From: Candidatus Woesearchaeota archaeon
GTDB taxonomy: Archaea > Nanobdellota > Nanobdellia > Woesearchaeales > GW2011-AR9
Length of the DNA: 50,625 bases
Assembly (NCBI GenBank): GCA_018657845.1
Contig: JABHWJ010000013.1
Location: forward strand, 1 to 50,625
Direction: 5' to 3'
Shown here: piece by piece, positions 1 to 50,625 of the stretch
Layout: each line of letters begins with the position of its first letter
Position numbering within the stretch: the first letter of the stretch is position 1
The notes under the pieces: generated by a model
The model's input: the letters and a program-made list of their open reading frames with translations, nothing else
What the model was told of the DNA's origin: nothing
Database searches by the model: none
Position numbers and translations under genes: made by a program

Positions 1-88
1 TGTTATGGTTGTTGGGTAGTGGAAATCAACTAGACAAGTAGACAACCACCATGAAGGTATATAAATGAGGAGATCTTGTTTATGGTTT

Positions 89-2347: not shown

Positions 2348-2375
2348 TTAAGATTTAGATAAATAGTTTTAGTTT

Positions 2376-3842
2376 TTAAGATTTTGGTTTTAAGATGAAG
2401 TAAGTGCACTCAAGAATTTGTTGGTGGTGGCGTTCTTGAAGGGTTTCTTTTAGGATGATGATGTTTTCTTGTTTGAGGAGTTGGAGGAATTGTTGTTTTT
2501 TATCTAGGCAGGTTTGATCTTGAGGATGGCAAATGAGTTCACAGGCGTTAATGATGATTAACTCAGCCGTGGACTTCTTGTTTTGGTAGATAGGAAGCGC
2601 ATAGTCCATTCCACTTAAAGGAATGATGGAATTATCAAGGTAAGAGATTAACGAAGGACTAGTAGTAAGAATGGGTCCTTGAATATTGTGATCCTGGATG
2701 TATTCTACAAATTGAGGATTTAGATCTGGGTTTTTTTCCATGTTGAATAGGTAAGGAAGTCCAATGATGATGAGAATGACGACAATGAAAATGAATGCAG
2801 TAGATTTAATAAATGGTTTCTTTGATTTTTTCAGTTTTTGATAGATTTGAATGATGTAGGGGGAGACGATGATAGCTAGGAAGGGAACAGCAAAAACAAG
2901 ATAACGGATTTCTTTTCTAGCTACAAAGAAAGTGAAGTAGAGTATTAAGAGAGTGGGGATTAAGTAGATAAGGAAAATCGAGGAGTTTTTCCAAGATCGT
3001 TTTTTGATAAAATCATAAAGGCCATAAAAGTAAACTAAATAAGGGGGGTTCTTGAGGAAGAAATTAGTTAGATAAAATAATATTCCAGTCCCATAAAGCC
3101 AGGTGGCGGTGGAAACTATCCAGTTTCCGGAGAGGAATGGTTCTAATGGATTAGGGTAAGTGAAGTAGTTGAAGATTAAATAAGGGAGAGTAGGGATGAG
3201 GAATCCCATTGTGAGGATGAAGAGGTGTTTTATTTTTTGTAGGAATTTAGTGTTGTTGAAAATTAAGATTATATAGGTAGAGAGAAGGATTATTCCTAAC
3301 GGAAATTTGGTGAGGAAAGCTAAGGAAGTAAAGATTCCAGAGAGGAAAAGATTTAGAGCTGATTTTTTGGTTTGAGAAATGAAAAAGTAGATTGCTAGGA
3401 GGATAAAGAGAATGGCAAGAGGTTCAGAAAGAACTAAGCCGGTGAACATGAAGAAAACAGGGGTGAAACTGAAAAGAAGAGCAGAGAGAATTGCGGATGT
3501 TTTGTTGAAAAGTTTTTTGGTGATGTGGTAAATTAGGGTGATGCTGGCTAATGAGAAAATTAGATTGACGAGTTTGGCAGTGAGGATAACTGGAAGATTA
3601 AGTTTCCAGAATGTCCCCAGTAAGATTGGGTAAGTTAAGGGACGAAAGGATTCCCATAATCCTAGTTTTCCTTGGGTGAAAATGTATTTGCCCATGCCAA
3701 TGTAAACATGGCTATCCCACCAGAGGTTGTAGTTTAAGAGAAGGTAAATAATTCTAGTTATTAAAGAAATTAGAAGAATCCAAAAAAGAGGATTCTTATG
3801 AAAAGACTTACTAATTTTTTGGAAGGATTTAACAAAGTTCAT
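2376..3842 (-). CDS. GT-C fold membrane glycosyltransferase (ArnT/PMT_2-like)
   Basis: WWDSHVY in first loop, RPLTYP, LSEP, LAFLTK, KEIRYL; many TMs. Confidence 0.78.
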   Translation of the reverse strand: MNFVKSFQKISKSFHKNPLFWILLISLITRIIYLLLNYNLWWDSHVYIGMGKYIFTQGKLGLWESFRPLTYPILLGTFWKLNLPVILTAKLVNLIFSLASITLIYHITKKLFNKTSAILSALLFSFTPVFFMFTGLVLSEPLAILFILLAIYFFISQTKKSALNLFLSGIFTSLAFLTKFPLGIILLSTYIILIFNNTKFLQKIKHLFILTMGFLIPTLPYLIFNYFTYPNPLEPFLSGNWIVSTATWLYGTGILFYLTNFFLKNPPYLVYFYGLYDFIKKRSWKNSSIFLIYLIPTLLILYFTFFVARKEIRYLVFAVPFLAIIVSPYIIQIYQKLKKSKKPFIKSTAFIFIVVILIIIGLPYLFNMEKNPDLNPQFVEYIQDHNIQGPILTTSPSLISYLDNSIIPLSGMDYALPIYQNKKSTAELIIINACELICHPQDQTCLDKKQQFLQLLKQENIIILKETLQERHHQQILECTYFILKPKS

Positions 3843-14054: not shown

Positions 14055-14145
14055 GGTAACTAGTTCTTTTAGAAGAGATGATTTAGAGTAATTAAATGGT
14101 CTTTAATAATACTTATAAAGGGAAAATCGATGTTTGTTAAATAGG

Positions 14146-15114
14146 ATGAAAAAGAAGATTGTGGTCATTGGTGGAGGGACAGGAAACTTTACAGTGTTAC
14201 AAGGGTTAAAGAATTATCCTGTGGAGTTAAGTTCAATTGTTTCGATGGCTGATGACGGCGGAAGTACTGGGGTTTTGCGCGATGAATTGGGAGTATTGCC
14301 TCCAGGAGATGTGAGACAATGTTTAGTTGCTTTATCAGGATCATCACGTTTGATGAGGAGTTTGATGAATTACCGGTTTGAAGATGGATGTTTACAAGGA
14401 CACAGTTTTGGAAATTTATTCTTATCTGCTTTGGAGAAAGTTACAGGTAGTTTTGAAAAAGCAGTAGATGAGGTAGGGAAGGTTTTATTGATTAAGGGGA
14501 AAGTGATTCCAGTTACAATTAATCAAACCAGATTGAAAATGATTTTGAATAATAAGAAACTGTTGGATGGAGAGTGTCAGATTCACGAATCTACTGAAGT
14601 CGATCAAGGATATACTGCGCTTTATTTGGAACCTTTTCCTACAGTGAATCAACGAGCGATTGATGAAATCAGGAATGCGGATTTGATTGTTTTAGGTCCG
14701 GGCGGATTATATACTTCTTTAATTCCAAATTTACTTGTGGAAGGAATGAGTAAGGCTTTAAGGGAAACGCAAGCTAAGAAAGTTTTTGTGGTTAATCTAA
14801 TTAATAAAAAAGGTCAAACCACCAATTTTTCTACTGGGGATTATTTGAAAGAGATAAATAGATTTACAGGAAGGAATGTTTTTGATCATGTTATAATCAA
14901 TGATGGTCTTCCTCCAGAGGAATTAGTTGCCAAGTATAAAGAAGAAGGAGATTTAGTTAAAGATGATTTGGAGGATCCAAAAATTATTAGAGCTAATTTA
15001 TTGGGTAATGGATTTAAGGAAGTACAGAAAGGGGATTTGATTAAGAGGAATTTAATTCGTCATGATTCTGATAAACTGGCTGCAGAGTTGATGAAACTTG
15101 TTGAAACTTGTTGA
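14146..15114 (+). CDS. YvcK/GlmR-like protein (CofD/UPF0052 family)
   Basis: IGGGTG, ADDGGSTGVLR, PPGDVR, GHSFGNL, GPGGLYTSLIPNL and RHDSDKLA; bacterial YvcK-type rather than F420 CofD-type. Confidence 0.88.
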   Translation: MKKKIVVIGGGTGNFTVLQGLKNYPVELSSIVSMADDGGSTGVLRDELGVLPPGDVRQCLVALSGSSRLMRSLMNYRFEDGCLQGHSFGNLFLSALEKVTGSFEKAVDEVGKVLLIKGKVIPVTINQTRLKMILNNKKLLDGECQIHESTEVDQGYTALYLEPFPTVNQRAIDEIRNADLIVLGPGGLYTSLIPNLLVEGMSKALRETQAKKVFVVNLINKKGQTTNFSTGDYLKEINRFTGRNVFDHVIINDGLPPEELVAKYKEEGDLVKDDLEDPKIIRANLLGNGFKEVQKGDLIKRNLIRHDSDKLAAELMKLVETC

Positions 15115-37081: not shown

Positions 37082-39109
37082 ATGCATAAAAAGAGGTGTA
37101 TTAGAGATAGGAATAGTTGGGAGAGTAATAAAAAAGGTCAGCTAACAATTTTTATAATTTTAGGAATTGTGCTTATTATTGCAGTTGCTTTGGGATTGGT
37201 TTTATGGAAAGGGACAGCTGTTTTTAAGCCAAGTAAAATATTTCTTTCAGAAAAAGGAAAAGTAGAATCTCAGATAACTTCTTGTATTTCGATTATAGGG
37301 CAGGAGGCTCTAGATATCATCGGGGCAACAGGAGGATATATTGAAATTCCTGATGAGATTTCTAAGGATGGTGGAAGTCATCTTAAACTTTCTCCATTTA
37401 TACTTGTCCCCTATTGGAGTGTGGGGCAATCAAAAAGAATTCCTTCTATAGATTTAGTCAAGGAAAGAATTGATGCATATATGGAATCAAGATTGCCATC
37501 ATGTATTTTTGCACCCTCTGAATTATTTGATGAATTTGATATTGTTGAAAAAGGTCCAGTGGAATCAAATGTTGAATTAGTAGATGGAGGAATTATCTTT
37601 AATGTTCGATATGATCTAGAAGTTAGAAATAAAGATGGATCTGTAGTTACAGAATTAATTGATCACTTAGCAGAATCTGATATTAAACTAAAGAACCTTC
37701 ATGAGATGGCCAGTGCAATAATGGAAGCTGAATTTGAAGAGTTGAAGTTAGAAGATATAACTATGGATTTAATTTCTCTAGAACACCCAAAGGTTCCTTT
37801 AATTGGTTTTGATATGAGTTGTACTAAAAAGAAATGGAAAGTAAATGAGGTACAAAGTACTTTGCAAGATATGTTAAGAGTTAATGTGGGAGAATTAAAA
37901 GTAAGTGGAACAAATTATGTGGAATTTCCAGAAGAACTTCCCTATTATAATACTCATTATGTTTGGAATGTAGGTTTAGAGGATCCAGAAATTACAGTTA
38001 ATCTAAATTATCAAGATGGGTTTCCGTTTTATTTCCAGGTGACTCCAAGTCAAGGAAATACTATGAAAAGTGGAGTTCTAGGGGGACAAAGTTTGTTATC
38101 CTTTTTATGTTTGCAATCTTGGAAGTTTACTTATGATGTGAGTTATCCAGTGATGGTAGAATTAATTGATGATACTACTGGGTATTTGTTTAATATGGCT
38201 TTTACAGTTCATGTGGTGCGAAATCAAGCTAATCGGAATGAAGCTACCACTACAATAAATCCTTCGCTATTAATTGATATTGGGGGAGATAATGAAGTTT
38301 ATTGTGAAGATTATGCTAAAAAACCATTGTTAGTTAAAACGTATGAGTTAATTCAGAATGAAGAAACAGGAATTTCTGACCATAAGCCTTTGAAAGATGT
38401 AGAGATAAGTTATACTTGTTTAAAGTATACTTGTGAGATGGGTGAAAGTGATTACAATTATGCAAAATATGGCGACGTAGCAATTTTAGATGAGATGTTT
38501 CCTTATTGTCCAGGTGCTTTATTGAGAGGAAACAAAGAAGGATACAAAGAAGCAATGGTGAGAGTAGTAACGGACAAGTATAAAGAAGTTGAGTTGAACA
38601 TGATCCCTATTTATTTATTAGATTCAGAGAAAATAAAAGTTGTTAAACATGGGTTTAAAGATCCTTTAACTGGAATTGAGGATGTTGCGGGGGCAGATGC
38701 TTTGGAAAAAGGAGAATTGGCTTCAGTAAAAATAACTAACAAGAAAGGAGGGGAAGTTTTCCACGAAGCAACATATATTTATCGTATGGAGAAAGGAGGG
38801 TTTAGTTTATTAGATCTTAATGAAGAGGATTCAGCAAAAGCTGAAAGTAGTTTAGAGTTATTGGGAGGAACAGATTTCAGTTATGAATTGGAAATTTATG
38901 TTTTTGATGAAACTGATATCAAAGGAGGATATCAAGGAATTTGGGATGTTGATTGGGATTCTTTGAAAAGTGGAGGAGATGTCGTTTTCCATGTATTAGC
39001 TCAAGACTCATGGGATTCCGATGTTGATATGTTTGATTTTGTAGCAAATTTAGATGTGTATAGTTCATATGTAACGGTTCCAACAATCGGGAGCGTAGGT
39101 GAAGAATGA
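37082..39109 (+). CDS. Large exported protein with class III (type IV pilin-like) signal peptide
   Basis: KKG|QLTIFIILGIVLIIAV; CI......ALD.IG..GGY motif; first gene of a coupled operon. Confidence 0.8.
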   Translation: MHKKRCIRDRNSWESNKKGQLTIFIILGIVLIIAVALGLVLWKGTAVFKPSKIFLSEKGKVESQITSCISIIGQEALDIIGATGGYIEIPDEISKDGGSHLKLSPFILVPYWSVGQSKRIPSIDLVKERIDAYMESRLPSCIFAPSELFDEFDIVEKGPVESNVELVDGGIIFNVRYDLEVRNKDGSVVTELIDHLAESDIKLKNLHEMASAIMEAEFEELKLEDITMDLISLEHPKVPLIGFDMSCTKKKWKVNEVQSTLQDMLRVNVGELKVSGTNYVEFPEELPYYNTHYVWNVGLEDPEITVNLNYQDGFPFYFQVTPSQGNTMKSGVLGGQSLLSFLCLQSWKFTYDVSYPVMVELIDDTTGYLFNMAFTVHVVRNQANRNEATTTINPSLLIDIGGDNEVYCEDYAKKPLLVKTYELIQNEETGISDHKPLKDVEISYTCLKYTCEMGESDYNYAKYGDVAILDEMFPYCPGALLRGNKEGYKEAMVRVVTDKYKEVELNMIPIYLLDSEKIKVVKHGFKDPLTGIEDVAGADALEKGELASVKITNKKGGEVFHEATYIYRMEKGGFSLLDLNEEDSAKAESSLELLGGTDFSYELEIYVFDETDIKGGYQGIWDVDWDSLKSGGDVVFHVLAQDSWDSDVDMFDFVANLDVYSSYVTVPTIGSVGEE

Positions 39110-42100
39110 ATACTAAAAAACTGGTGACTTTATTTATCATTATGTTAATGGTAATGCTCCCAGTAGTTTCAGCTGTGGAAATTTCAGAAGTGGTGGTAAG
39201 GGATGTCACTGAAACTGGAGCAACAGTAGAATGGTTGACTGATGAAGAAGCTGATAGTGCAGTTGATTATGGTTTAGATAAAGAAAATTTTTCTAATGAA
39301 ATGAATGAAGAAGAGGTTTTAGAACATTCTGTGGCTTTGGTTGGTTTGGATTCTGGAAGTGATTATTATTTTAAGGTAATGAGTGGTGATGCAGAAGATG
39401 ACAATAGTGGAGATTTTTATTCATTCAAAACTTTAGAAGGAGAGGTTGTTGAGGAAGAAGGTTTTAAGTTAGAGATTGAAGTTCCAGAATATCTTGCAGA
39501 AGAAGAGGTTGATCTTACAGGGGTAGCTTCGGTAGGAAGTAAGGTTAAATTATATCTTGATGGGTTATTAGAAGGGATTGTAACTGTTAGTGAAGAAGGA
39601 ACTTTTGAATTTTTGGAAGTAGATTTGACGAGAAATGAGTGGAATACTTTATTGTTTTTAGCTAAGAGTGGAGAGGAGGAGATTAGTAAGGAGTTTAAGG
39701 TATTTGTAGATCTGAAGGCTCCACAGATAAGTTTGATTGGAGAGGTTCCTGAATTTCTTTTGGAAGCTGAATTAGCTATTAAGGGTAAGATCGGTGAGGA
39801 AGCCCAAGTAGTGGTTTTACTTAATGAACAAGAGGTTTATAATAATAAGACTAGTGAGTTTTTAGTTGATTTAACTTTGGTTGAGGGAGAGAATACCTTA
39901 TTAATTAGTGCAGAAGATTTAGCTGGAAATAAAGAATTTGTAGAAAGAACTATTTTATTAGACATGTCTGCTCCCGAAGTAAGTTTTGATTTTGAAAAAG
40001 GGATGGAATATTATCAAGGGAATGCAGAAACACAGATTTTTGGACAAACAGAAGCAGGAGCAAAATTATATCTTTATTATTTTAAACAAACAGCTTCTGG
40101 AAAAGATCCAGACTTTAGTAGGGCTTTTGGTGAAGCAACTGCCGATGAGAATGGAAGCTTTGTTTTTGACGAAGTAGATTTAGATCACCCGCCTACATTT
40201 ACTTTATTAGAGAAATTAGGCCCTAAACAAGTACCACAAGAATTATTAGAAGTAGAGATTTCTTCTTATGAAGGGGCAGATCAACAAGAAAATTGGATAA
40301 CTTATGTTTATGTTATTGCTGAAGACAAAGCAGGTAGGGTAGGTTATGCAGAGAAAACTATTCAGATTCATTCTTGTTTCTCTGGAGAGTTGAAGTTTAA
40401 TGTTATGCCATTGACTGAATTTCAGTTACCTAGACGTTTGGATCCAGATTTATTAGATGACGGAAGACAGGTTGTTACAATGGTTTTAGATTTAGATTAT
40501 TTGGGACAAGGTCAACCGTTAACAGATGCAAATGGGAATATTATTTCTGAAGGTTTTGAGATTAGTGATATTAATTTTAGAAAAGCTTGTACTCATGGAA
40601 TGATTGATGATGAGAGCACGGCATTAGCTTGTAAGATTTTGCCAGAGACTCCACAGAAAAAAGTTCCTAATGCCAATAAGGATGCTTGGTTTGTTCAATA
40701 TACTTTAAACTCTGCTGAAGATTTTAGTGAAAAGGAAGATGATTTTTGGAATGATTTTAAGAAAAGGCAAGTTGTGTTTCCAATAAAAGCAGAGATAAGT
40801 TATCGAGAAAGATTAGCCCCTGGACAACAAGGTTATAATTCTAATCAATATGGGGGACAACAGAGCCCATATAGTCAATATAGTCAATACAGTGGTTCTG
40901 GAAGTAGTCTTTATGGAGGTAGTAGTTATGGAAGCGCATATGGCAGTAATTATGGTAACAATGTTTATGGAAGCCAATTATATGGTCCTTTGAAAACACA
41001 AACGGTTTGTTTAAATCCTGGTTATTTCGTAGATATTCCAATTGATAGTGAAGATTTAATTCCCGATTGGTTGGCTGATGATGGAGTTAGAATTCTGAAT
41101 AATACAATAGAAACAATTGATACAATAAATGAATATTTGTATGATGCAATGGTTATTGCGGGAGTTACTTGCGGAGCGAGTTTTATATTGAGGATGGCAG
41201 CTAGATGGTATAGGTTATTCCAACAGAAATGGGAACCTTATCTTTCAGAAGCTGAAAAACTTGCTGCGGCAGTAGGTGTAACTACAGGAGAAAAAGGCCA
41301 ATGTCCTTTGGATCAAGGTGGACTATTTGCTGATGACACAATTGCTAATTGGAAGAAGTTACAAAATAGTGATCATGCAGACAAGCAAACAGCTAATTTC
41401 CCAGAAAATTTAGATGATCTTAGTTTGAATCTGAAATTGAATTGTCCAAAAACTGCCAGTGCTTGGAAAATAGAAGATGGAATAGATCAAGTTTTCAAAT
41501 ATTCTTGTTATCGGGTGTTCTGTAAAGCGGCCCCCGCTAGATGGACTGAGGATAAAACAGAAACTAAGGTTCAAGCAACCATATTAAAGGGTCAGAGTTG
41601 TGGAGGAACAACTGGAAAAGGATTACCTCTACAGAAATTAGAAAATTGTGATAAAGAATTTACTTACATGAGTACTTCGTTGGGTTTGAAAGGAATCCAG
41701 CAAACTGGGACTGAAAACTTGAGAGATTGTTGGAAAGGTCCTAATGGAGTAATCTATTTTTATTTTAAGCAGAAGAATACAAATGTAGATGAACGAAATA
41801 AAGGGATATATCATTTAACACCATTAGATCATATTACTGGTTCTTTTGGAGATATTCCTGCAGATGATTTAGTTGTTTATCAACCAAAAGGTTCAGATAA
41901 TTATATTGTGGGGGTAGATGACACTTGTAATAATCTTTGTAAAAGGACTCCTGGATTTGAGGCTTTGAAAAAGGGACAAGGTTTAACTAAAGCTTGTAAG
42001 TTAGAGAAAAAAGACGGTTCTATTGAAGTGAATACTGGAGAATTTACTGCAGGATATACTAAAGATTGTTTTATTAATGAAAAAACAAAAACTTTACAGC

Positions 42101-44526
42101 AGTGTATCTGTGTGGGAGCTGAAGAGAAACAAGAAACTTATGCGGCGAGAACGGCATTAAGGGCGGATGGAAATAATGTCGAAGAGTGGTCTTATCGACA
42201 AGATCGGATTTTCCAAGAATCTAATGAACAACAAGGAACTTATTACCCAAAATGGAGATATTATGGGGGAAGAGATTTCCCAGCTAGTTTTGGTTTAAAC
42301 CATTTATTAGATTATACGCGTCCAGATAATGAGGAGATTGCAGAAGTCAATCCAAATACTCAACATATTGGGGCAGTGCAAAGTTTGTGCATTAGTGGAG
42401 TGTACAATAGGTTAAAATTATTAAGAGACACTTTAGATTATGTGGCACAGTGTATTACTGATGCGAAACATAATAGTATAAATGATGCAGGAATTTGTAA
42501 ACATTTAATGAGTCAATATGTTTGTGGTTTGGTATACAAGATAATTGCATATGCTGCTAAAGGATGTTTACCAATAACTTTTAGTGATGAAGAATCTAAG
42601 GGTAGTTTTGATAAATTAGGAAAAGGAATAGAACTTGGAATTGGTTCTCTTTATGAAACAGTAGATACTTCTTTTGAAGATTTGAAAAGTGAGTTTGGTA
42701 ATGCTAAATTAAATGAATTTGTATCTGGAGGAGTAGAAGGTTTTACTCGATCGGTGTGTATGGCAGCATTGGGTTATGATTGGGTTTTTGATATGGATTT
42801 CTTAATGGATGCAGCTTATGCAACTCCATTTAAGACAACTGCCTTAGTGATACCAGAAAGAGAATTAGTATCTTATGATCCAACTCAGAAATCAGCTATC
42901 TATAGTTATAGCTTGGGAGCGTCATTATTTCCGGGATGTGATATCCGAAGTTGGAATGTTAAATTGAAATGTGTGGGTCCAGAAGACATGGGCAAGCCAG
43001 GAGTAGATTGTACCCAACAAGGCTGTGACTGTGCGAAGATCTCAGGAGCTTCTCCATTCTCTTACGATCGGGAAAGGATAATGGAGGGTGGAACTGGATT
43101 TGATGTAAGTGCCGGAGGATATGCTAGTTTACCTGTACCTTCGCCACAAATTATTACTAGCCAATATAGATATGATCACGTTGTAGTAGAGTTGATGTTA
43201 GAGCAATATGCAGATCCATCGACTTGTTTTGATGAAGGATATTTCACTGGAAATGTAGGGAGATTCTATTTCCCAGTTGTAGAAGTTGGAAGTGAGCCAA
43301 GTGTGGATTGTAATGTTGATTTAGAGTCAGGTAGATTTATTTGTAGTGGGTTGTCTGAGTTTTTTAGTACCGGAGCAGGTTACTTTGAATGGCCATTTGT
43401 GGATTGTGCAAATCAGGAATCGGGAGGGTATGTTGCATGTAATAGTCCAAATGGAATTATAAAAGGAGATCCCTTAATTATAAGACCACACATAACTACT
43501 GATGGGACGCAAGATTTGTGTATGTATATGACTTTAAATGGAGGTCCACAATCAATCACGAAAGTAGGAAAGATTCCTAAATTAAATGTGGGGTCAATAA
43601 GTCCTACTTATTCTTTTAGTCCAAGTTTAGATAATAGTTGGTTTGTGGGAGGGTTAGGAGAGAATATTTTCTTGGACCAGGGAACAAGTAATCTTGGGTG
43701 TAATGATGCACTTGCAAAGGAGAAAACTGGTGATCCAATAAAGTCTAATGGGGTATTTTCTGTATCTTTTACAGGAGGAAGTATTGCTGGAACTTTTAAA
43801 GTGAAGGTGGGTGCGACTGTTGAAACTCCAGGTTATACAAAAAGTGAAGAACTCTTGATTAACCCTGCCAATAGTGGGCAAGATTTTAATGTTAATCAAA
43901 TAAATCAAATACCCTTTGTGGTAGGCGGATATAAAATTAAAAACATTTTGAAGAGTACTTTTGTAGGGCCGAATGGGAAGTGTACTTGGAAGACGCAATC
44001 AGCTAACACTCCTGGGATGCAAACAACTGGGACGAAGACATTAACATTAAGTATGGAATTAAGGTATCCTGGATTGGGAGGAAGTTGCGAATTAGGAGTT
44101 ACTACCAAAATACCAGGTTCACAATTTGGAGTTACAGGACATCAACAACCAATAGTAATTCAGGAATCTAAAATATCTTTGGTTAGCCAAGATGTCCAAG
44201 AAACTTATGATTACTTTTTGGCAGGATCATATGCAGATACTTTTACTCGAGCAATTAATATGGTCCAAGGCAATGAGGGAGGAGAGAAGGAAATCCATGC
44301 TTATTATTTGGCTGTTGCGGCGAGAGTTTTACAAGGGGCAAATCAAGCAGAGAATACAAATCCTAAAGCGTATAAAGATGAAGTTGTTGGTTTGATTACC
44401 CAGTTTGCTAATGAAAATTATGGTCCAGAGATTAAAGGAAGGAATGATTACAAGAAAATAGCTGCGTATATGAAGGAGATTGGGAACGCTTTTGGAGTAA
44501 GTGGGGATATTTTGTCTAAAATTTGA
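39106..44526 (+). CDS. 1806-aa secreted protein: FN3-like domain, Ig-like repeats, Cys-rich body
   Basis: Signal peptide VVSA|VE; ATVEWLTDE..S.V.YG..H.V.L.GL...YYFKV.S (FN3-like); D..AP and EGEN...AEDLAGN Ig repeats; internal hydrophobic segment; ATGA overlap. Confidence 0.85.
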   Translation: MNTKKLVTLFIIMLMVMLPVVSAVEISEVVVRDVTETGATVEWLTDEEADSAVDYGLDKENFSNEMNEEEVLEHSVALVGLDSGSDYYFKVMSGDAEDDNSGDFYSFKTLEGEVVEEEGFKLEIEVPEYLAEEEVDLTGVASVGSKVKLYLDGLLEGIVTVSEEGTFEFLEVDLTRNEWNTLLFLAKSGEEEISKEFKVFVDLKAPQISLIGEVPEFLLEAELAIKGKIGEEAQVVVLLNEQEVYNNKTSEFLVDLTLVEGENTLLISAEDLAGNKEFVERTILLDMSAPEVSFDFEKGMEYYQGNAETQIFGQTEAGAKLYLYYFKQTASGKDPDFSRAFGEATADENGSFVFDEVDLDHPPTFTLLEKLGPKQVPQELLEVEISSYEGADQQENWITYVYVIAEDKAGRVGYAEKTIQIHSCFSGELKFNVMPLTEFQLPRRLDPDLLDDGRQVVTMVLDLDYLGQGQPLTDANGNIISEGFEISDINFRKACTHGMIDDESTALACKILPETPQKKVPNANKDAWFVQYTLNSAEDFSEKEDDFWNDFKKRQVVFPIKAEISYRERLAPGQQGYNSNQYGGQQSPYSQYSQYSGSGSSLYGGSSYGSAYGSNYGNNVYGSQLYGPLKTQTVCLNPGYFVDIPIDSEDLIPDWLADDGVRILNNTIETIDTINEYLYDAMVIAGVTCGASFILRMAARWYRLFQQKWEPYLSEAEKLAAAVGVTTGEKGQCPLDQGGLFADDTIANWKKLQNSDHADKQTANFPENLDDLSLNLKLNCPKTASAWKIEDGIDQVFKYSCYRVFCKAAPARWTEDKTETKVQATILKGQSCGGTTGKGLPLQKLENCDKEFTYMSTSLGLKGIQQTGTENLRDCWKGPNGVIYFYFKQKNTNVDERNKGIYHLTPLDHITGSFGDIPADDLVVYQPKGSDNYIVGVDDTCNNLCKRTPGFEALKKGQGLTKACKLEKKDGSIEVNTGEFTAGYTKDCFINEKTKTLQQCICVGAEEKQETYAARTALRADGNNVEEWSYRQDRIFQESNEQQGTYYPKWRYYGGRDFPASFGLNHLLDYTRPDNEEIAEVNPNTQHIGAVQSLCISGVYNRLKLLRDTLDYVAQCITDAKHNSINDAGICKHLMSQYVCGLVYKIIAYAAKGCLPITFSDEESKGSFDKLGKGIELGIGSLYETVDTSFEDLKSEFGNAKLNEFVSGGVEGFTRSVCMAALGYDWVFDMDFLMDAAYATPFKTTALVIPERELVSYDPTQKSAIYSYSLGASLFPGCDIRSWNVKLKCVGPEDMGKPGVDCTQQGCDCAKISGASPFSYDRERIMEGGTGFDVSAGGYASLPVPSPQIITSQYRYDHVVVELMLEQYADPSTCFDEGYFTGNVGRFYFPVVEVGSEPSVDCNVDLESGRFICSGLSEFFSTGAGYFEWPFVDCANQESGGYVACNSPNGIIKGDPLIIRPHITTDGTQDLCMYMTLNGGPQSITKVGKIPKLNVGSISPTYSFSPSLDNSWFVGGLGENIFLDQGTSNLGCNDALAKEKTGDPIKSNGVFSVSFTGGSIAGTFKVKVGATVETPGYTKSEELLINPANSGQDFNVNQINQIPFVVGGYKIKNILKSTFVGPNGKCTWKTQSANTPGMQTTGTKTLTLSMELRYPGLGGSCELGVTTKIPGSQFGVTGHQQPIVIQESKISLVSQDVQETYDYFLAGSYADTFTRAINMVQGNEGGEKEIHAYYLAVAARVLQGANQAENTNPKAYKDEVVGLITQFANENYGPEIKGRNDYKKIAAYMKEIGNAFGVSGDILSKI

Positions 44527-44554: not shown

Positions 44555-45082
44555 ATGAGAGAAAAAAGAGGGAAGGCGAGGACGATTGTATTGTTATTAC
44601 TATTTTTAATAGTGTTCTTGGTATTGATATATGGTGGTTATTTTTATAAATTAATGGAAAAAGAGAAAGTAGAATTGGACGAAGATTTAGGATTGGGAGA
44701 AGAACCAGATATTGGAGAGGTAACTGATTCTGAGGAGCCTGAAGTGGTGGAAGATGTTTCAGAAGAATCTGAAGAAACTTTAGTCGGATGTAATAAACAT
44801 CTTGAGGAATTAAATTGTGTTAAAGAGGGTTGTTTGTGGGAAAGTGATTTAATTTTATGTTATGATTACGGAGAGATTGAAGAAGAGTGTAGTTTTAGTG
44901 AGAGTGAAAATGATTGTTTGTTGTTTGGTTGTATTTGGAATGAAAAAGATCTTTCTTGTGAGGAATTTGAAGAGACGTCTGATGTTTTAGGTTGTTTTGA
45001 TTTTATTGATAAGCAGAATTGTGAGGCAGAGAATTGTTTTTGGGATGCAATAGAAGAACTGTGTGAGGAAAGAGAAATATGA
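44555..45082 (+). CDS. Membrane-anchored acidic protein with three C-x8-C-x4-C-x-W-x6-C repeats
   Basis: KRG plus TM; repeats CNKH..CLW, CSFS..CIW, CFDF..CFW. Confidence 0.8.
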   Translation: MREKRGKARTIVLLLLFLIVFLVLIYGGYFYKLMEKEKVELDEDLGLGEEPDIGEVTDSEEPEVVEDVSEESEETLVGCNKHLEELNCVKEGCLWESDLILCYDYGEIEEECSFSESENDCLLFGCIWNEKDLSCEEFEETSDVLGCFDFIDKQNCEAENCFWDAIEELCEEREI

Positions 45083-48000
45083 AGAAAGGATTTTTATTAA
45101 TGTTTTTTTTTGGGTTGTTTTTTTTAAGTGCAGGATTAGTTCAGGCAATAATTCCTTATTCAATTTTGGTTCAAGACTGTGATCCGTATATGCTTAGTGA
45201 GACTGGATGTGCTACTAATGATCTTACTGAAGACGTTTATTATTTTTATGATGAAGTGGAGAGGAGTTGGAAGTATCAATTAGACTCTGGACTTACTTTA
45301 GGGACTGGAGAATGGTTAGAATTAAATGAGATCTCTATAGATATACAAGATAATGTTTTTGATCCAGGGATTGAAAGTTGTGGACAACATGATTTTATTT
45401 ATCGTGAATATTGTTGGCTTAATAATTTTTTGATAGAAGCGCATGAAGATTCAATAGAATGGTTGTATGATTCTGAAGAAGCTTATGATCCAGTTTATTT
45501 AGATGGGTTAGATGTAATCTGTAAATGGCATCGACAAGAGGAAATAGATTCTGGACCTTGGTCGCCTGCCACTGGTCTCAACCGCCCATTTGAAGGGAAG
45601 ATTTTTTTTGTTCCTGAATTATTAGAAACAGAATATCCAGTGGAAAAAATATTATATCCTGGGGAGGATTTGGGAGTTGTTACTACTGCGTTTGCATGTG
45701 ATAATTCTCAAATGAAATTAAAACAAGAAGAAGAATTAAATTTTGAATTTTCTAGTTTGGGCCAATATTGTGATTATTCTTTTGAATGCGAAACGGGAGT
45801 TTGTGCAGATGGGGTTTGTTGTGATCAGAAATGTGATTGGGGGTGTTCATCTTGTGCTTCAGAAGGAAACGAAGGATCTTGTGTTCAAAAACCAGAAAAC
45901 ACAACTTGCGGAAATGGTAAAATTTGTACTCTAGAAGGAGAGTGTAAAAAAGAGTTGGGAGTGAAATGTAGTCTAGGAGAAGAGTGTTTAAGTGGTAATT
46001 GCAACAGCGGGGTTTGTTGTAACGTAGAATGTGAAGGTGGTTGTGAGTATTGCAATAAGCCTGGAAAGGTGGGGACTTGTATTTTTAGATATAGTGGTTA
46101 TCCTGGGTTAGATTATTGTCCAGCTGGAGAAGTTTGTGATGGTTATGGTGGATGTAAAGAAGGAAAAGTTGTGTGGTTGGCAAACGAACAAGATGTTCCT
46201 CCGGAAGAAGAGTTCACTGATGAAGTGATTATAGATGATCCCGAAAGTGTAAACTATTTGTGTAAGAATTGTTATGTTACTCCTTATCAAGAAACTGAGG
46301 CGGTTGGAAAGGCATCGGATGGTTTTTTATTGAATGGAGTTAGATTGTTACTCAATGACCCTAGTTCTCCTTATCTATCTGCTAGAAAAAATAATTATGG
46401 TACAATAGAATTAATCAGATCTTTAGAAGCAGCCTCTTGTTATATGAATCAGAATTTTGGGGGAGTAAAATTACAGATAAACGATTTGAGTAAAGAGAAA
46501 GGGGGAGAAATATCTGGACATGCTAGTCACGAGAGTGGGTTGGATGTAGATACTGGAATATTTACTTTTTCTAACGGGAATTTTGAAGGAGAATTAAGTA
46601 AGAAATGTTTATCTGAGATTGTTGTTGAAGTTAATTCTGAAGGAAAGGAAGTGAAGAAAGTTGGTTGTAAGGCGGGAAAGGTTTATGATTCTTTTAATAA
46701 TCCAGAAGCCTTAAGAGCCAATTGGGAATTTTTGAAAAAGTTAAATCAAATTTATGATGTACAATTTATTTTCTTGGATAAAGAATTGATAAATCCAATT
46801 AAAAAATATGCCACTTCTATTGGCGAAGGGCATCTTTGGGGGGAAGTAGGAGGTGTGCTTAAACATTGGCCCAATCACCATCATCATTATCACATCAGAT
46901 TAAAGTGTCCACTTGGAGATAAAAAGTGTAAGGGTGCAGGAGCGGTTAAGGAAACCCCCTGTGAAAGTGTTGATGAAGAAATAAATAATTGTGAAAGCAC
47001 TTTCAAAAAAGAAGGTTTTCAATGTATGTTTAAGGGAAGTGAAGGAGATGCAATTACTTCTGGATGTAAAGTTACAGAAGCATGTTATGGTGGAGAATGT
47101 TGTTCAGCAGGAGATTATTGTTGTCCAATCAGTGGAGAGAAAGGAAAATTAGTAGGGAAAGAATTAGATGAGACCGCAGTAATTGTAGAAAGTTTAGAGT
47201 GGAAAGAAACTAATGTTGAAGGGGCGGATTTGTATATTTATGAAACTCAATGTAAATCTAAATTAAATGAGTTGAATGATAGGGTTGAGGGGATTGTGTT
47301 ACCTAAAGGATTAGCTAAAGAGTCTACCTTAGGAGAGGTATGTGCAGATGCTTCATTTGAAACAATGATAATTGGAAGTCTTCCATATCCGACAAATCTT
47401 AAAAAATGGGAAGATGCAATAAAAGCAGAAGGCTTACCTGGAAAAACATGGATGGGGAAATTAGATTCTAATGGTCCAACTGATGAAAAGTTCATGGAAG
47501 ATGTTGGAAGAGATTCTTTGCTTTTTATTCCATGTACTACTGATTTAAGTCAACCCTTAGAAATATTTTATTTTTTGCATGGAAATAGGGGATTTGGTGG
47601 TCCAAAAGATTTGAATGATTTTAAAACTAGGGCGGCTCCTAAAATTAAGGAAATGGGTTTAGATGGAAGAAATATTATTTGGGTGATTCCGGAATTACCT
47701 TGGTCTTCAGGAGACGAATCTAAGCAAGCGCTAGCTAAAGGAACTGGAAGGGCAATTCCTAAGAGGCAAAAAAGTCTTTTGGCAAAGGGAAATTTGGAAG
47801 GAATAGACTTTGTTCAATTTCATCAAGATATCATGGTGATTATAGAAGAGCTTGAACCAAGTTTTGATGAAAGTTTAGTTACTTATATTTCTATGGCTGG
47901 TCACAGTGCAGGAGGAGCGGCCTTATGGTGGGCAGCAGAAAGTGGGGCTTTAGAAACTTTAGCAGTTAATAAAATAACTTTTTCTGATGCCGATTATTTT

Positions 48001-49017
48001 GGTGGAGCGAAAAAAGTATGGGCGAAGTATTTTGGTGGAGGAAAAGTTCCAGGGGGACTGGGAGCAGAAATTGGAGCAGAATTAAACTTGTTAGTTCAGG
48101 ATCCTAGCAACAGGGGTGCCCATAATCCTACAGCTTCGGCGTTGAGTTTTATTAAAAAATGGAAAGGAAATCTTCCAGATAATATTAATTATGTTCCTTT
48201 AAAGATGAAGCATAGGCCAATTGGGAAATATTCCTTATCTTGGGTTAGTGATAATCCTCCTATTGAGGCTGTAGATATTCCTTATGTCAATAGAGAAATA
48301 ATTGAAGATGGTTCTAAAAAAGAAGTAAAAGTTTATTTTTATTTTCATGGTAATACTAAATCTACCCAGAGTAAGAGTTTTGTAGAAAGTTATGTAGAAA
48401 ATTATGATCTGTTAGAAAATATGGCTGGGTTAGAAGAAAAGACTGGAGAGAAAGGAGTTTTGGTTGTGTTGAAAGGAGCTTCTCCTAACAGTGTGGGAAA
48501 TTCTGGACAGTGGATGAAAGGGACAAGAGGAGATGAATCTTGGTTTAGTTGTTTTTATGATGAAGCTTTAGTGAAGTTAGATGATTTGGGTTTAAAGCCT
48601 ACTTCAATGAGGTTGATGTCTCATAGTGCAGGGGGTAAGGCGATTAGGAATATTGTTAATTCTGGGTTTTTGGGCGAATCGGGATTGTTGCCTTTAGAAT
48701 CTGTATCTTATTATGATTCTTGTTATGGGGGTTGGTGTAGTGATGTTATGGATGAAATTGTGGATGAAGAAGCAGAGATTTTTGCTATCTGGTCTCCAGA
48801 AGGAGCTTCTCCCCAGAATAAGGTTTCAGCATTTAGTTTTTTGACTGGGATGAGTAAGGAAGAAGTGAAAGGAATGAAAAATGGAGATGTATATGAAGGA
48901 AAGGAAGGATTTGAAAATACTGTTTATGCTGTTAAGGTAGAAGAGTCTCATGGAGATGTAGTGAGGAAATGTTTTTACAACTATATTTCTGATGGGGAAT
49001 GTGAGGCGGCTAGTTAA
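45079..49017 (+). CDS. Secreted multidomain hydrolase: Cys-rich repeats, MepA/M74 murein endopeptidase domain, two alpha/beta-hydrolase domains
   Basis: Signal LVQA|II; AVG....G.L.NG, YGT.EL, NDLS..GG, GHASHESGLDVD, WPNHHHHYHIRLKCP....C; then FLHG/GHSAGG/SDA and FHG/SHSAGG/YDS. Confidence 0.85.
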   Translation: MKKGFLLMFFFGLFFLSAGLVQAIIPYSILVQDCDPYMLSETGCATNDLTEDVYYFYDEVERSWKYQLDSGLTLGTGEWLELNEISIDIQDNVFDPGIESCGQHDFIYREYCWLNNFLIEAHEDSIEWLYDSEEAYDPVYLDGLDVICKWHRQEEIDSGPWSPATGLNRPFEGKIFFVPELLETEYPVEKILYPGEDLGVVTTAFACDNSQMKLKQEEELNFEFSSLGQYCDYSFECETGVCADGVCCDQKCDWGCSSCASEGNEGSCVQKPENTTCGNGKICTLEGECKKELGVKCSLGEECLSGNCNSGVCCNVECEGGCEYCNKPGKVGTCIFRYSGYPGLDYCPAGEVCDGYGGCKEGKVVWLANEQDVPPEEEFTDEVIIDDPESVNYLCKNCYVTPYQETEAVGKASDGFLLNGVRLLLNDPSSPYLSARKNNYGTIELIRSLEAASCYMNQNFGGVKLQINDLSKEKGGEISGHASHESGLDVDTGIFTFSNGNFEGELSKKCLSEIVVEVNSEGKEVKKVGCKAGKVYDSFNNPEALRANWEFLKKLNQIYDVQFIFLDKELINPIKKYATSIGEGHLWGEVGGVLKHWPNHHHHYHIRLKCPLGDKKCKGAGAVKETPCESVDEEINNCESTFKKEGFQCMFKGSEGDAITSGCKVTEACYGGECCSAGDYCCPISGEKGKLVGKELDETAVIVESLEWKETNVEGADLYIYETQCKSKLNELNDRVEGIVLPKGLAKESTLGEVCADASFETMIIGSLPYPTNLKKWEDAIKAEGLPGKTWMGKLDSNGPTDEKFMEDVGRDSLLFIPCTTDLSQPLEIFYFLHGNRGFGGPKDLNDFKTRAAPKIKEMGLDGRNIIWVIPELPWSSGDESKQALAKGTGRAIPKRQKSLLAKGNLEGIDFVQFHQDIMVIIEELEPSFDESLVTYISMAGHSAGGAALWWAAESGALETLAVNKITFSDADYFGGAKKVWAKYFGGGKVPGGLGAEIGAELNLLVQDPSNRGAHNPTASALSFIKKWKGNLPDNINYVPLKMKHRPIGKYSLSWVSDNPPIEAVDIPYVNREIIEDGSKKEVKVYFYFHGNTKSTQSKSFVESYVENYDLLENMAGLEEKTGEKGVLVVLKGASPNSVGNSGQWMKGTRGDESWFSCFYDEALVKLDDLGLKPTSMRLMSHSAGGKAIRNIVNSGFLGESGLLPLESVSYYDSCYGGWCSDVMDEIVDEEAEIFAIWSPEGASPQNKVSAFSFLTGMSKEEVKGMKNGDVYEGKEGFENTVYAVKVEESHGDVVRKCFYNYISDGECEAAS

Positions 49018-49019
49018 AG

Positions 49020-49601
49020 ATGAGTTTTAATGTAAGAGGAGTTCCAAGGGTTGTTTTAGTTTTGTTAATTATTGGAGGGCTTGTTTTTTTAAGTGCTTTA
49101 ATCTTAGGAGTTACGAATTTGAGTGGGGCTTCTGGAGGAGAAGGAGATGCACTTCTTTATCAGAATGGTCCGTTCGGTGAAGGATTAGTGTTGAAGAATT
49201 TTCAATGGTGTGATTATGTAGATATTTATTATAGATGTATTAATCCAAGGAGTACTTTTGATGTTCCAGGGAGTGTATCTTTTACTTTAACTGTGGAAAG
49301 TGATGTAGTGAGTGGAGGGGTACAGTTGGTAGAAAATTATGCAATTAAGGATAAAGAAGGAAATTATCATTTAGTGATGGATGAAGCGAATGCTATTTAT
49401 TTTGAAGGGATTAGTTCTGAAGATAAGGATAAAGTTTTTTTTAAGAATTCATTTAGGTTAGAAGAAGATCTTAGCCCGGGAGATTATATTTTGGAGTTAG
49501 AAGTAGAGAATCTTTTGTTTGGGGGAAAGTTGACGTTGGAAGAAGAAATTAGTGTTGAGGAAATTTTACCAGAAGATCCGGCAGGGGTGGAGTACCAATG
49601 A
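49020..49601 (+). CDS. Membrane-anchored single Ig-like domain protein
   Basis: RG plus hydrophobic N-terminus; beta-rich with PGDYILELEVEN strand. Confidence 0.7.
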   Translation: MSFNVRGVPRVVLVLLIIGGLVFLSALILGVTNLSGASGGEGDALLYQNGPFGEGLVLKNFQWCDYVDIYYRCINPRSTFDVPGSVSFTLTVESDVVSGGVQLVENYAIKDKEGNYHLVMDEANAIYFEGISSEDKDKVFFKNSFRLEEDLSPGDYILELEVENLLFGGKLTLEEEISVEEILPEDPAGVEYQ

Positions 49602-50625
49602 AAAGATTATTCTGGATTTTGATGATTGTTTTAGTTATGTTTGGTGTTCAAGCACAAGTGGCACCTATTTCTGGAGGGGGGAGTAATGATCCTGGTGTGC
49701 CCCAAGTTGTTTTATCTGGAGATATATTGCAAGATTGTCCGCATTTAGATTTTAATAGCCACAGTAATTCGGAGGCTGTGGGGAAACAATCAGCTGGAAG
49801 TTTGGTTAGTGGAGTGAAGTTACCAGATAGATCTTATTTTAATAAGAATTGGCAATCTTCCAACAATGACGAGCAATATGGGACGATAGAATTAGTAAAT
49901 ACTTTGGAGTTAACTGCTTGTTATATGAATTTGATGTTTGAATCTACTCCTCTTAAAGTTCATGATTTGAGTGTACAAAATGGTGGAAAATTGAATCCAC
50001 ATAAAAGTCATCAGAATGGTTTGGATGTCGACGTGGGATTTTATTTATATGAGGGAACTAGTAATTATGTTAATGTTTGGAAAGAAATGTGTGATCGGGA
50101 GGGAGAGGGAAAAAATTGTTATGCTGCAGGCACTGGTAAATATAATGTAGATCTTCAATTCTTACATCCAGATTCTTTAACGACCAATTGGTGGTTTATT
50201 AAAACGCTAATTAATGTTTATGATGTTCGAGCCATTGCTTTTGATCAAGTTTTACAAGATGTTTTGGAAACTCATGTAAGGGATGTTTTAGGTGAGGGAG
50301 AAGCATGGGATAGACATAAACCCTTGTTTGCTAAATGGCCTGGACATCATGATCATTATCATATTAGGTTGAAATGCCCAAAAGGAGATTTGCACTGTGA
50401 GGGAAGTAAAGCAGAGAAGAATTTTCCAGGAGAGGGGTTTGTAGATCCAGGAGTTCCATCACAAGAGCTTGCGGAGCAGAATACACAAACAACTGGACAA
50501 CAATTACCTGGAGAGCAAACTACTACGGGAGCCTCACCAATTGGAGGGAGTACCCAAGGAGGAGTACAACAATCAACAATTCCTAATTGTGCTTATTGTC
50601 AGAAAATAGATAGTTCTTGGTTAAA
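49598..50625 (+). CDS. Secreted protein with N-terminal MepA/M74 murein endopeptidase domain (3'-truncated by window)
   Basis: Not in ORF track; translated by hand: MKRLFWILMIVLVMFGVQA|Q...SEAVGKQSAGSLVSGVKLP...QYGTIELV...HDLSVQNGG.LNPHKSHQNGLDVD...WPGHHDHYHIRLKCPKGDLHC; no stop before window end. Confidence 0.88.
   Translation, partial: MKRLFWILMIVLVMFGVQAQVAPISGGGSNDPGVPQVVLSGDILQDCPHLDFNSHSNSEAVGKQSAGSLVSGVKLPDRSYFNKNWQSSNNDEQYGTIELVNTLELTACYMNLMFESTPLKVHDLSVQNGGKLNPHKSHQNGLDVDVGFYLYEGTSNYVNVWKEMCDREGEGKNCYAAGTGKYNVDLQFLHPDSLTTNWWFIKTLINVYDVRAIAFDQVLQDVLETHVRDVLGEGEAWDRHKPLFAKWPGHHDHYHIRLKCPKGDLHCEGSKAEKNFPGEGFVDPGVPSQELAEQNTQTTGQQLPGEQTTTGASPIGGSTQGGVQQSTIPNCAYCQKIDSSWL

Follow-up and report, generated by a model that had tools for sequence, protein, structure and literature searches.

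A predicted secreted M74-family peptidase gene in an operon with giant surface proteins of a Woesearchaeota-type archaeon

The window analysed here is the 50,625-base contig JABHWJ010000013.1 (the entire contig G000:C24) of the Candidatus Woesearchaeota archaeon assembly GCA_018657845.1 (G000), which comprises 862,812 bases in 44 contigs and is 89% complete. At the right-hand end of the window lies an open frame (49598-50623, plus strand; 342 codons from the ATG at 49598, 3'-open at the window end) for a predicted secreted peptidase of the M74 family, which we call copy 2, since a first M74 gene (copy 1) lies just upstream. We consider it likely that this frame is the 5' half of a functional DPANN gene, and that its product is one of several secreted, operon-encoded proteins that lyse bacteria or breach the wall of a host. 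The frame had been described in the original prediction, made from the sequence alone, as a second MepA paralog that the open reading frame (ORF) track had missed. The frame does run from the ATG to the contig end with no stop before it, but its absence from the ORF track reflects no more than the open 3' end, since NCBI nr already contains an identical partial protein of 342 residues.

The M74 domain and the full-length gene

Pfam family PF03411 (Peptidase_M74) matched residues 60-275 of copy 2 (E = 9.7e-18; 65.1 bits vs a cut-off of 25) over profile positions 1-200 of 240, and a profile search of the whole assembly found two M74 matches only, copy 1 and copy 2. In an alignment with MepA of E. 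coli MG1655, HKSHQNGLDVD (residues 135-145) of copy 2 aligned with HASHQTGLDVD, and HHDHYHIR (residues 250-257) with HRAHMHVR. H113, D120, H206, H209 and H211 of E. coli MepA thereby correspond to H138, D145, H250, H253 and H255 in copy 2 and to H484, D491, H600, H603 and H605 in copy 1, and these five catalytic or zinc-binding columns were invariant in a 52-sequence family alignment. We take H113, D120 and H211 to be the zinc ligands of E. coli MepA. LAS zinc metallopeptidases are described as carrying H-x(3-6)-D ... H plus H-x-H, with the first His of H-x-H catalytic (PMC4087270); copy 2 has both motifs, as H138-x6-D145 ... H255 and H253-Y-H255. The expectation of a complete domain with its catalytic residues kept was thus borne out.

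The E. coli MepA structures (1tzp and 1u10) were the sole PDB sequence match of copy 2 (E = 1.5e-7), and both motif blocks aligned. An AlphaFold2 model of residues 45-290 had a predicted local distance difference test score (pLDDT) of 87.9, dropping to 55 at the model end, and a predicted template-modelling score (pTM) of 0.88. When this model was searched with Foldseek, the top five PDB matches were all MepA chains (1tzp/1u10; E = 1.1e-11 to 3.9e-11; template-modelling (TM) score 0.62-0.66), and the next fold matches, hedgehog N-domains and LdcB, had E values of at least 0.014. Against the NCBIfam MepA equivalog NF006947 (cut-off 272 bits), copy 1 scored 63.0 bits and P0002, the closest relative of copy 2 (see below), scored 66.7 bits, vs 360.6 bits for the E. 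coli MepA control. Copy 2 is therefore a member of the M74/LAS family and not a MepA orthologue, and the term 'MepA paralog' was overstated. Judged from its sequence, the copy 2 domain looks like a competent M74/LAS peptidase.

The ATG of copy 2 shares bases with the stop codon of the 193-residue gene before it (ATGA), with GGGGTGGAG just upstream, and the 342-codon frame is translationally coupled within the operon. By inspection, the N-terminus (MKRLFWILMIVLVMFGVQAQ, followed by VAP) has a basic n-region (MKR), a 13-residue hydrophobic core (residues 5-17; mean Kyte-Doolittle value 2.87) and a QAQ/V site. These features, which had been recognized as a signal peptide from the outset, suggest that a Sec-type signal peptide directs the secretion of copy 2.

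When 1.84 billion representatives were scanned with HMMER, there were 1978 relatives of copy 2 at E <= 1e-3, 204 at E <= 1e-10 and 5 at E <= 1e-30. A word-index homologue search at near lengths had given 1319 candidates, none at E <= 1e-5, and was uninformative because the full HMMER scan yielded those 1978 relatives. The best relative, P0002, is a 704-residue protein that is 96% identical across all 342 residues of copy 2. Two metagenome contigs (L028 and L029) carry this 704-residue form, as do 3 cluster members, and the last 1.56 kb of the window is 97.6% identical to L028 in DNA sequence. Since the form is intact on these near-identical contigs, the copy 2 gene is not a pseudogene, and the concern that the frame might terminate as one just beyond the window did not hold. 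As the window is a whole contig, the missing 3' part reflects an assembly break and not a stop codon. The window tail had no overlap with any other contig end of G000, and tblastn and blastn searches of the 862,812-base assembly found neither the missing 3' half nor the SLT and enolase genes that follow it on L029.

Towards its end the open frame has a low-complexity linker, the Cys motif PNCAYCQKIDSSWL and the opening 18 residues of a conserved module of about 45 residues (C-x2-C-x-K-I-D-x2-W ... V-W/Y ... W), in line with the Q/T/G linker and the beginning of another Cys-containing domain noticed earlier. A hidden Markov model (HMM) of the module, built from 7 seeds, matched residues 325-342 of P0001 at E = 7e-4; its non-seed matches were P0017 (8e-12), P0029 (6e-11), P0013 (8e-8) and P0011 (8e-5). 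The SLT protein of L029 (module at about 2270-2440) is one of the 7 seeds and matches by construction. The module was also found in two proteins of genome G029, one of them without M74, and in one G006 protein without M74 (loci L024 and L025); in relatives it usually lies near the N-terminus, ahead of M74. No known family matched the module, and our guess is that it may be a wall-binding or docking element.

Past the window end, the 704-residue form continues with the rest of the module, a second low-complexity linker and a 275-residue domain. Among 10 sequences of this domain, H37-G38, H143-S144-x-G146-G147 and D180 were invariant and H259 was near-invariant, which gives an HG oxyanion motif, a GHSxGG elbow, an Asp and a His in alpha/beta-hydrolase order. 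No Pfam family matched the domain. Its model (pLDDT 68.5; pTM 0.75) had 221 PDB fold matches at E <= 1e-3, those listed being esterases or serine hydrolases at TM scores of about 0.35-0.45; look-alikes in the protein atlas, which we treat as a lead only, fell in clusters of Myxococcota and Pseudomonadota that are either unnamed or called 'alpha/beta hydrolase'. The model suggests that the C-terminal domain is an alpha/beta-hydrolase with a Ser-Asp-His triad, probably an esterase. The same hydrolase domain is present twice in copy 1, and it adjoins M74 in P0003, P0034, P0009, P0013, P0012 and P0006, in the P0045 family (2816 residues) and in G006.

Between the signal peptide and the M74 core, the gene has a variable tract (codons 27-56) in which about 35% of bases differ from L028, plus a one-codon indel. 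K245N is the sole listed codon difference from L028 outside this tract, and the remaining 285 codons differ by one base. By the Nei-Gojobori method, codons 1-60 have 11.5 synonymous and 19.5 non-synonymous differences from L028 (synonymous rate dS 0.40; non-synonymous rate dN 0.15), and codons 61-342 have 0 synonymous and 1 non-synonymous, so that dN/dS outside the tract is uninformative. Only two alleles of the tract occur among 4 sequences, the three 704-residue sequences sharing one and the window having the other, and a search for a donor in the genome and loci gave chance matches of 13-21 bases only. The pattern of differences suggests that codons 27-56 are a mosaic tract, probably a recombination import, and such a tract carries no information on the constraint of the M74 domain. 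Deeper pairs for dN/dS are less than 50% identical and saturated; indirect evidence for constraint on the M74 domain comes from the invariant catalytic columns, the intact frames and the retention across the family. A diversity-generating retroelement was also considered for the tract and set aside on its pattern alone (an indel, changes that by eye are not adenine-specific, and an N-terminal site), with no search made for a reverse transcriptase or a template repeat.

Operon layout, distribution and phylogeny

Copy 2 is the last of six plus-strand genes, from 37082 to the contig end, that encode 675, 1806, 175, 1312, 193 and at least 342 residues and overlap or lie at most 30 bases apart (Table 1). 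The 1806-residue product is a giant, predicted secreted protein with fn3/Ig-like N-terminal domains, and the 1312-residue product is copy 1, so that the first MepA-type copy of the original prediction is real. No family matched the 193-residue protein. In G015, a genome of another genus of the same family, genes for 658 residues (45% identity to the 675-residue protein), 1989 residues (33% to the 1806-residue protein, full length) and 178 residues (33% to the 193-residue protein) stand in the same order, and the G015 giant protein (L023, 11231-17200, minus strand) bears an M74 domain fused at its C-terminus. Likewise, the P0045 family joins segments resembling the 1806-residue protein to M74 and to a hydrolase domain of the first type, and its named members are titled Woesearchaeota. 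These fusions of giant proteins to M74 are of the Rosetta-stone kind, connecting genes that stand apart in the window, and speak for lytic domains and giants acting jointly.

On L029, the end of the 704-residue gene is overlapped by 20 nucleotides by a gene for a 303-residue, predicted secreted SLT protein (2137-3048, plus strand; E = 3.2e-16), followed by enolase. In neighbouring clades, M74 is fused to Peptidase_M15_4, Amidase_3, SLT, GDSL esterase, PGA_cap and Metallophos domains. Since GDSL-esterase fusions occur besides the alpha/beta-hydrolase ones, the pairing of endopeptidase and esterase appears to have arisen with two unrelated esterase folds.

Table 1. Features of the window around the two M74 genes (all positions are those of the window)
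Feature	Coordinates	Strand	Basis or remark
Predicted secreted M74 endopeptidase / alpha-beta-hydrolase gene (copy 2), 5' part (342/704 codons)	49598..50625	+	ORF; cut by contig end
Predicted signal peptide, residues 1-20 (MKRLFWILMIVLVMFGVQAQ)	49598..49657	+	Sequence, hydropathy, judged by inspection
Variable tract, codons 27-56, signal peptide to M74 core	49676..49765	+	Comparison with L028
Peptidase_M74 (LAS zinc metallopeptidase) domain	49775..50422	+	Pfam; same coordinates in genome search
H138-x6-D145, H-x(3-6)-D zinc-binding motif	50009..50032	+	Alignment
H250, H253, H255	50345..50362	+	H253-x-H255 is the LAS H-x-H
CP..C stretch, then Q/T/G/P-rich low-complexity linker	50423..50569	+	Translation
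First 18 residues of the conserved module of about 45 residues, cut by contig end	50570..50623	+	HMM
Copy 1, 1312-residue predicted secreted protein	45079..49017	+	Cys-rich N-terminal part, M74, two alpha/beta-hydrolase-like domains
Copy 1 M74 domain, residues 408-626	46300-46956	+	Pfam, 60.1 bits
Copy 1 alpha/beta-hydrolase-like domains	residues 801-970 and 1072-1306
193-residue membrane-anchored protein between the M74 genes	49020..49601	+	Kept in G015 (33% to A178) and L028
Upstream genes of 675, 1806 and 175 residues	37082..45082	+	Tightly packed, syntenic with G015

Two features of the operon are recorded here in their own right. The 1806-residue protein (39106-44526, plus strand) has a long S/Y/G/Q-rich low-complexity stretch at about residues 560-620 (...YGGQQSPYSQYSQYSGSGSSLYGGSSYG...). 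Between it and copy 1 (44555-45082, plus strand), the 175-residue product is an acidic, Cys-rich, membrane-anchored protein with repeated C..C..W motifs and weak Trefoil and PSI matches only.

The host is a small-genome (0.86 Mb) DPANN archaeon of Woesearchaeota type. The small-subunit ribosomal RNA fragment of G000 is archaeal (704 bits), the window also encodes TFB, a RadA/Rad51-type ATPase, GatD, TYW3, PAC2 and ribosomal protein S2, and named relatives of the window proteins are titled Candidatus Woesearchaeota archaeon. The guanine-plus-cytosine (GC) content is 0.33-0.36 across the window and 0.325-0.365 across all contigs of G000, so that the operon matches its archaeal contig in composition. 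Of 36 genomes of the window's family, 11 had M74, vs 1 of 24 from the order's other families. When 250 further genomes, each at least 80% complete, were sampled across the phylum, M74 was found in 9 of 28 family genomes vs 2 of 222 elsewhere in the phylum, both outliers being in the same order. SLT is much more widespread: of 60 relatives, 41 had it (in 40 the score exceeded the cut-off). It was not found in G000 itself, as expected if its copy in G000 lies past the contig break.

Elsewhere in the window, a tyrosine recombinase gene (65-910, plus strand; Phage_integrase, E = 1e-43) lies at the contig start, and the gene at 14134-15114 (plus strand) strongly matches the CofD/YvcK family (E = 2e-86), in a genome of very small size. 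Neither an Rfam scan nor a tRNA scan of the window gave a match.

For the phylogeny, M74 domains were collected with an HMM from alignment A1 and kept if they covered at least 70%, which gave 234 rows from 245 sequences with matches, drawn from the window, the loci of relatives, 80 named contig loci and 150 representatives. Duplicate loci, P0001, P0005, P0152 and P0153 were left out beforehand, and L050 fell below the coverage filter. The named contig loci were found with one motif pattern, which makes the bacterial sample a biased one: among the matches listed, 77 of the 79 named rows that passed the coverage filter carry bacterial titles, with 58 Myxococcota and 4 Bdellovibrionota. In a FastTree phylogeny, a 61-row clade (support 97) held all 14 labelled archaeal rows together with both copies, and no labelled bacterium. 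An IQ-TREE phylogeny (LG+C20+F+G4 with posterior mean site frequencies (PMSF); 91 rows, rooted on E. coli MepA) was then built from this clade minus one duplicate, 12 rows of the sister set, up to 10 Myxococcota and up to 3 rows per other phylum.

In the IQ-TREE phylogeny, both copies fell in a 38-row clade (ultrafast bootstrap (UFBoot) 98 / Shimodaira-Hasegawa-like approximate likelihood ratio test (SH-aLRT) 93; later supports are given in the same order). All 12 labelled rows of this clade are archaeal: 10 are from genomes of the same family, and the other two are from metagenome-assembled genomes (MAGs), one with the title Woesearchaeota and one with the title Methanosarcinales. The clade consists of a 16-row multidomain clade (94/93) and a 22-row short-protein clade (100/97). 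Copy 2, together with P0002, groups with G015 and P0006 (83/87) on a long branch (1.2), and copy 1 groups with G006 and P0012 (94/78), so that the copies stand in separate 8-row subclades, each with other genera (81/83 and 93/83). P0045 attaches at a 42-row node (90/84), and Myxococcota and Bdellovibrionota branch outside a 60-row clade. Of 26 relatives that lacked labels, P0076 and P0123 (with its duplicate P0175) had names of their own, whereas P0045 took its label from named members of its cluster. It had been proposed that the gene is no recent stray transfer, and that the proposal would fail if the two domains branched with different bacterial clades. Both lie within the 38-row clade, whose labels are all archaeal, and the uniform GC content, the archaeal housekeeping genes and the occurrence in 11 of 36 and 9 of 28 family genomes likewise agree with that proposal.

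The proposed duplication of the two copies within the archaeal lineage fared less evenly: both copies do lie in an archaeal-labelled clade, but they are not sisters in the tree. Because the copies are not nearest relatives, the duplication or domain shuffling looks older than these genera. The segments said to be idiosyncratic to the two copies are not private to them, as YGTxELV is the consensus of the 52-sequence alignment, and YGTIEL..CYM and NW.F.K...YD are also present in P0003, P0006 and P0009. A recent tandem duplication in the genome's own lineage, after which copy 2 diverged fast, is an origin to which we give a minor though appreciable chance. It fits with the position of the copies 600 bases apart on the same strand, with the long branch of copy 2 and with the pairing of M74 with the same hydrolase subtype in both (the C-terminus of P0002 is 34% identical to residues 1072-1312 of copy 1, the highest value in alignment A2). 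On the other hand, the best tree places the copies in different 8-row subclades, and the identity of copy 2 to P0003 (47%), G029 (41%) and G015 (39-41%) exceeds that to copy 1 (35-38%). A tree constrained to keep copy 1, copy 2 and P0002 together was worse by 11.4 log-likelihood units; the approximately unbiased (AU) test, on a group that was named after the tree had been seen, gave a borderline p of 0.064 that does not reject sisters. Both copies thus belong to an archaeal radiation, and they probably diverged before the genera of the family, or by shuffling among them. The tree points to no particular donor.

Two other placements in the tree are worth recording. The M74 row of L039, from the MAG titled Methanosarcinales archaeon, nests tightly among Woesearchaeota-type rows, by P0031 and sister to L044/G021, which suggests a misbinned contig or a recent transfer. 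The M74 rows of L026 and L027, from genome G048 of the same order, group with P0076, and in-frame stops (1 TGA, 1 TAA) are reported for them; in this 300-contig MAG, contamination or decay is possible.

Proposed function and competing explanations

E. coli MepA cleaves the D-Ala-mDAP (DD) and mDAP-mDAP (LD) cross-links of murein, where mDAP is meso-diaminopimelic acid. Neither Mur_ligase_M nor PBP transpeptidase was found in the 89%-complete G000, and since no murein-synthesis gene was found, copy 2 most likely acts on the walls of external bacteria. In such an operon, the M74 endopeptidase would cut peptide cross-links and SLT would cut glycan strands. The esterase may remove O-acetyl groups that block SLT, or may attack ester lipids, which the archaeon lacks, and the giant surface proteins would keep the enzymes at the contact site.

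Several points weigh against this interpretation. The absence of Mur and PBP genes is read from a genome that is 89% complete, and the C-terminal half of the gene and its SLT neighbour are known from near-identical contigs, not from the G000 assembly. The bond specificity of copy 2 may differ from that of MepA, whose equivalog cut-off is far from reached. The esterase model is moderate (pLDDT 68.5; TM about 0.4), and its substrate is a guess. No Pfam cell-wall-binding domain was found in copy 1 or copy 2, M74 being the sole Pfam domain in P0001, P0002 and copy 1. In the tree, labels are lacking for 24 of the 38 rows in the 'archaeal' clade, and the 60-row node (98/94) includes P0076, which is labelled candidate division KSB1. 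E. coli MepA itself is a housekeeping periplasmic enzyme and not a weapon, and the DPANN archaea studied in culture, to our knowledge, live on archaeal hosts.

The hosts of cultured DPANN also favour another substrate, which might be pseudomurein, some different envelope of an archaeal host with peptide cross-links, or else the archaeon's own surface proteins if the enzyme processes the giants. The score far under the MepA equivalog cut-off and the clade row from the MAG titled Methanosarcinales (L039) could be read in the same way. We nevertheless regard a non-murein substrate as improbable. LAS peptidases of the M74 type act on D-amino-acid or Gly-Gly bonds of murein, and the cross-links of pseudomurein are of L-amino acids. 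The SLT neighbour and the fusion partners Amidase_3, M15_4 and SLT are murein-specific families, and the main text of Strock et al. 2025 (PMC12352652) assigns only 2 of its archaeal hydrolase homologues to the pseudomurein-making classes. If murein is the substrate, the enzymes might still serve digestive scavenging, in which free peptidoglycan debris of dead bacteria would be degraded to feed an auxotrophic archaeon with amino acids and amino sugars. The same enzymology would fit, the genome is reduced to 0.86 Mb, Pfam detects no targeting or wall-binding domain, and such DPANN have been proposed, in the text of PMC9723730, to recycle cellular compounds. However, the enzymes share an operon with adhesin-like giants, and the fusions of M74 to giants in relatives suggest use at a contact site on the cell and not free diffusion. 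Scavenging is thus, in our judgement, rather unlikely.

That the frame is a decaying, non-functional remnant of horizontal transfer, or that a bacterial contig was misbinned with an archaeal genome, is very improbable and already largely refuted. The frame is indeed incomplete in G000, and bacterial titles predominate among the named family rows listed (77 of 79). Against this stand the intact 704-residue gene on two contigs and in 3 cluster members, with all catalytic residues present, the archaeal housekeeping genes on the same 50.6-kb contig, the uniform GC content, the synteny of the operon with G015, and the presence of M74 in about a third of the family genomes. The bacteriolytic or wall-breaching operon therefore remains our preferred reading.

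A more far-reaching form of it, which we put forward only tentatively and hold to be doubtful, is that a single family of Woesearchaeota-type DPANN has assembled an apparatus that breaches the walls of bacteria on contact. Its giants would carry M74, esterase and SLT or dock them via the module of about 45 residues, for parasitism or predation across domains on living bacteria, and the esterase would represent a previously undescribed alpha/beta-hydrolase subfamily. Since the targets (murein, and possibly ester lipids or O-acetylated murein) are absent from the archaeon, such an apparatus would need no immunity protein.

Comparison with known systems and significance

E. coli MepA (1tzp and 1u10) shares with copy 2 the Pfam family, the fold and the H-x6-D ... 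H-x2-H-x-H arrangement, and it has a signal peptide, as is predicted for copy 2. Unlike MepA, with which it shares 20-22% identity only in the structural alignment, copy 2 is encoded by an archaeon with no murein-synthesis genes found in its 89%-complete assembly, and its type is multidomain (module and alpha/beta-hydrolase) and lies in an operon with giants, with SLT on the near-identical contigs. Multidomain M74 proteins of Myxococcota, Bdellovibrionota and other bacteria are the nearest named bacterial relatives among the matches listed, and lytic-domain fusions occur in neighbouring clades, but unlike both copies these bacterial proteins fall outside the 60-row clade, and we found no functional study of them. 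The Myxococcus xanthus 'MepA' was rejected as a relative, being an unrelated M36 protease.

Bacterial-wall hydrolases of archaea in general have already been published. According to the main text of Strock et al. 2025 (PMC12352652), 175 of 3,706 archaeal genomes encode peptidoglycan hydrolases, with Nanoarchaeota, in its taxonomy the group holding Woesearchaeota-type genomes, prominent among them, and two haloarchaeal peptidoglycan hydrolases were shown there to kill a bacterium. Those enzymes, like copy 2 as predicted, are murein-cleaving, secreted and encoded by archaea. As defined in that main text, the census required a Pfam catalytic domain plus a Pfam wall-binding domain; copy 2 has no Pfam wall-binding domain, and M74 proteins of its type would therefore probably have escaped the count. 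Nowhere does that main text use the words M74, MepA or endopeptidase. In Vigneron et al. 2022 (PMC9723730), whose main text cites the earlier aquifer genome AR20, Woesearchaeota with GH23 lytic murein transglycosylases and a pore-forming toxin were proposed to have a predatory, 'vampiristic' lifestyle. The operon described here shares with them the lineage label, the predicted degradation of bacterial walls and an SLT/GH23 gene, directly downstream in L029. However, their enzymes cut glycan, whereas those of the copy 2 type are predicted to cut peptide cross-links and are paired with a putative esterase; the main text of that paper has 0 occurrences of MepA or endopeptidase. We found no description of the M74 family in archaea in the literature searched, supplementary tables aside. 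What appears to be new, as read from the sequences, is that archaea have M74, that it is paired with a putative esterase not yet characterised and with a small shared module, and that in relatives it is fused to giant surface proteins.

The practical consequences are several. Censuses of archaeal peptidoglycan hydrolases that need a known wall-binding domain can miss whole clades. The analysis also gives pointers to a possibly new docking or binding module and to an esterase subfamily, as yet uncharacterised, that recurs alongside a murein endopeptidase, and enzymes of the copy 2 type are candidates for new antibacterial lysins.

Much of archaeal diversity belongs to the DPANN, and few of their hosts are known. 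An operon of bacterial-wall-specific enzymes and giant surface proteins that is retained within one family is a testable hint, and suggests that some DPANN physically meet bacteria. If the contact apparatus proposed above is true, it would represent archaeal parasitism or predation on bacteria across domains.

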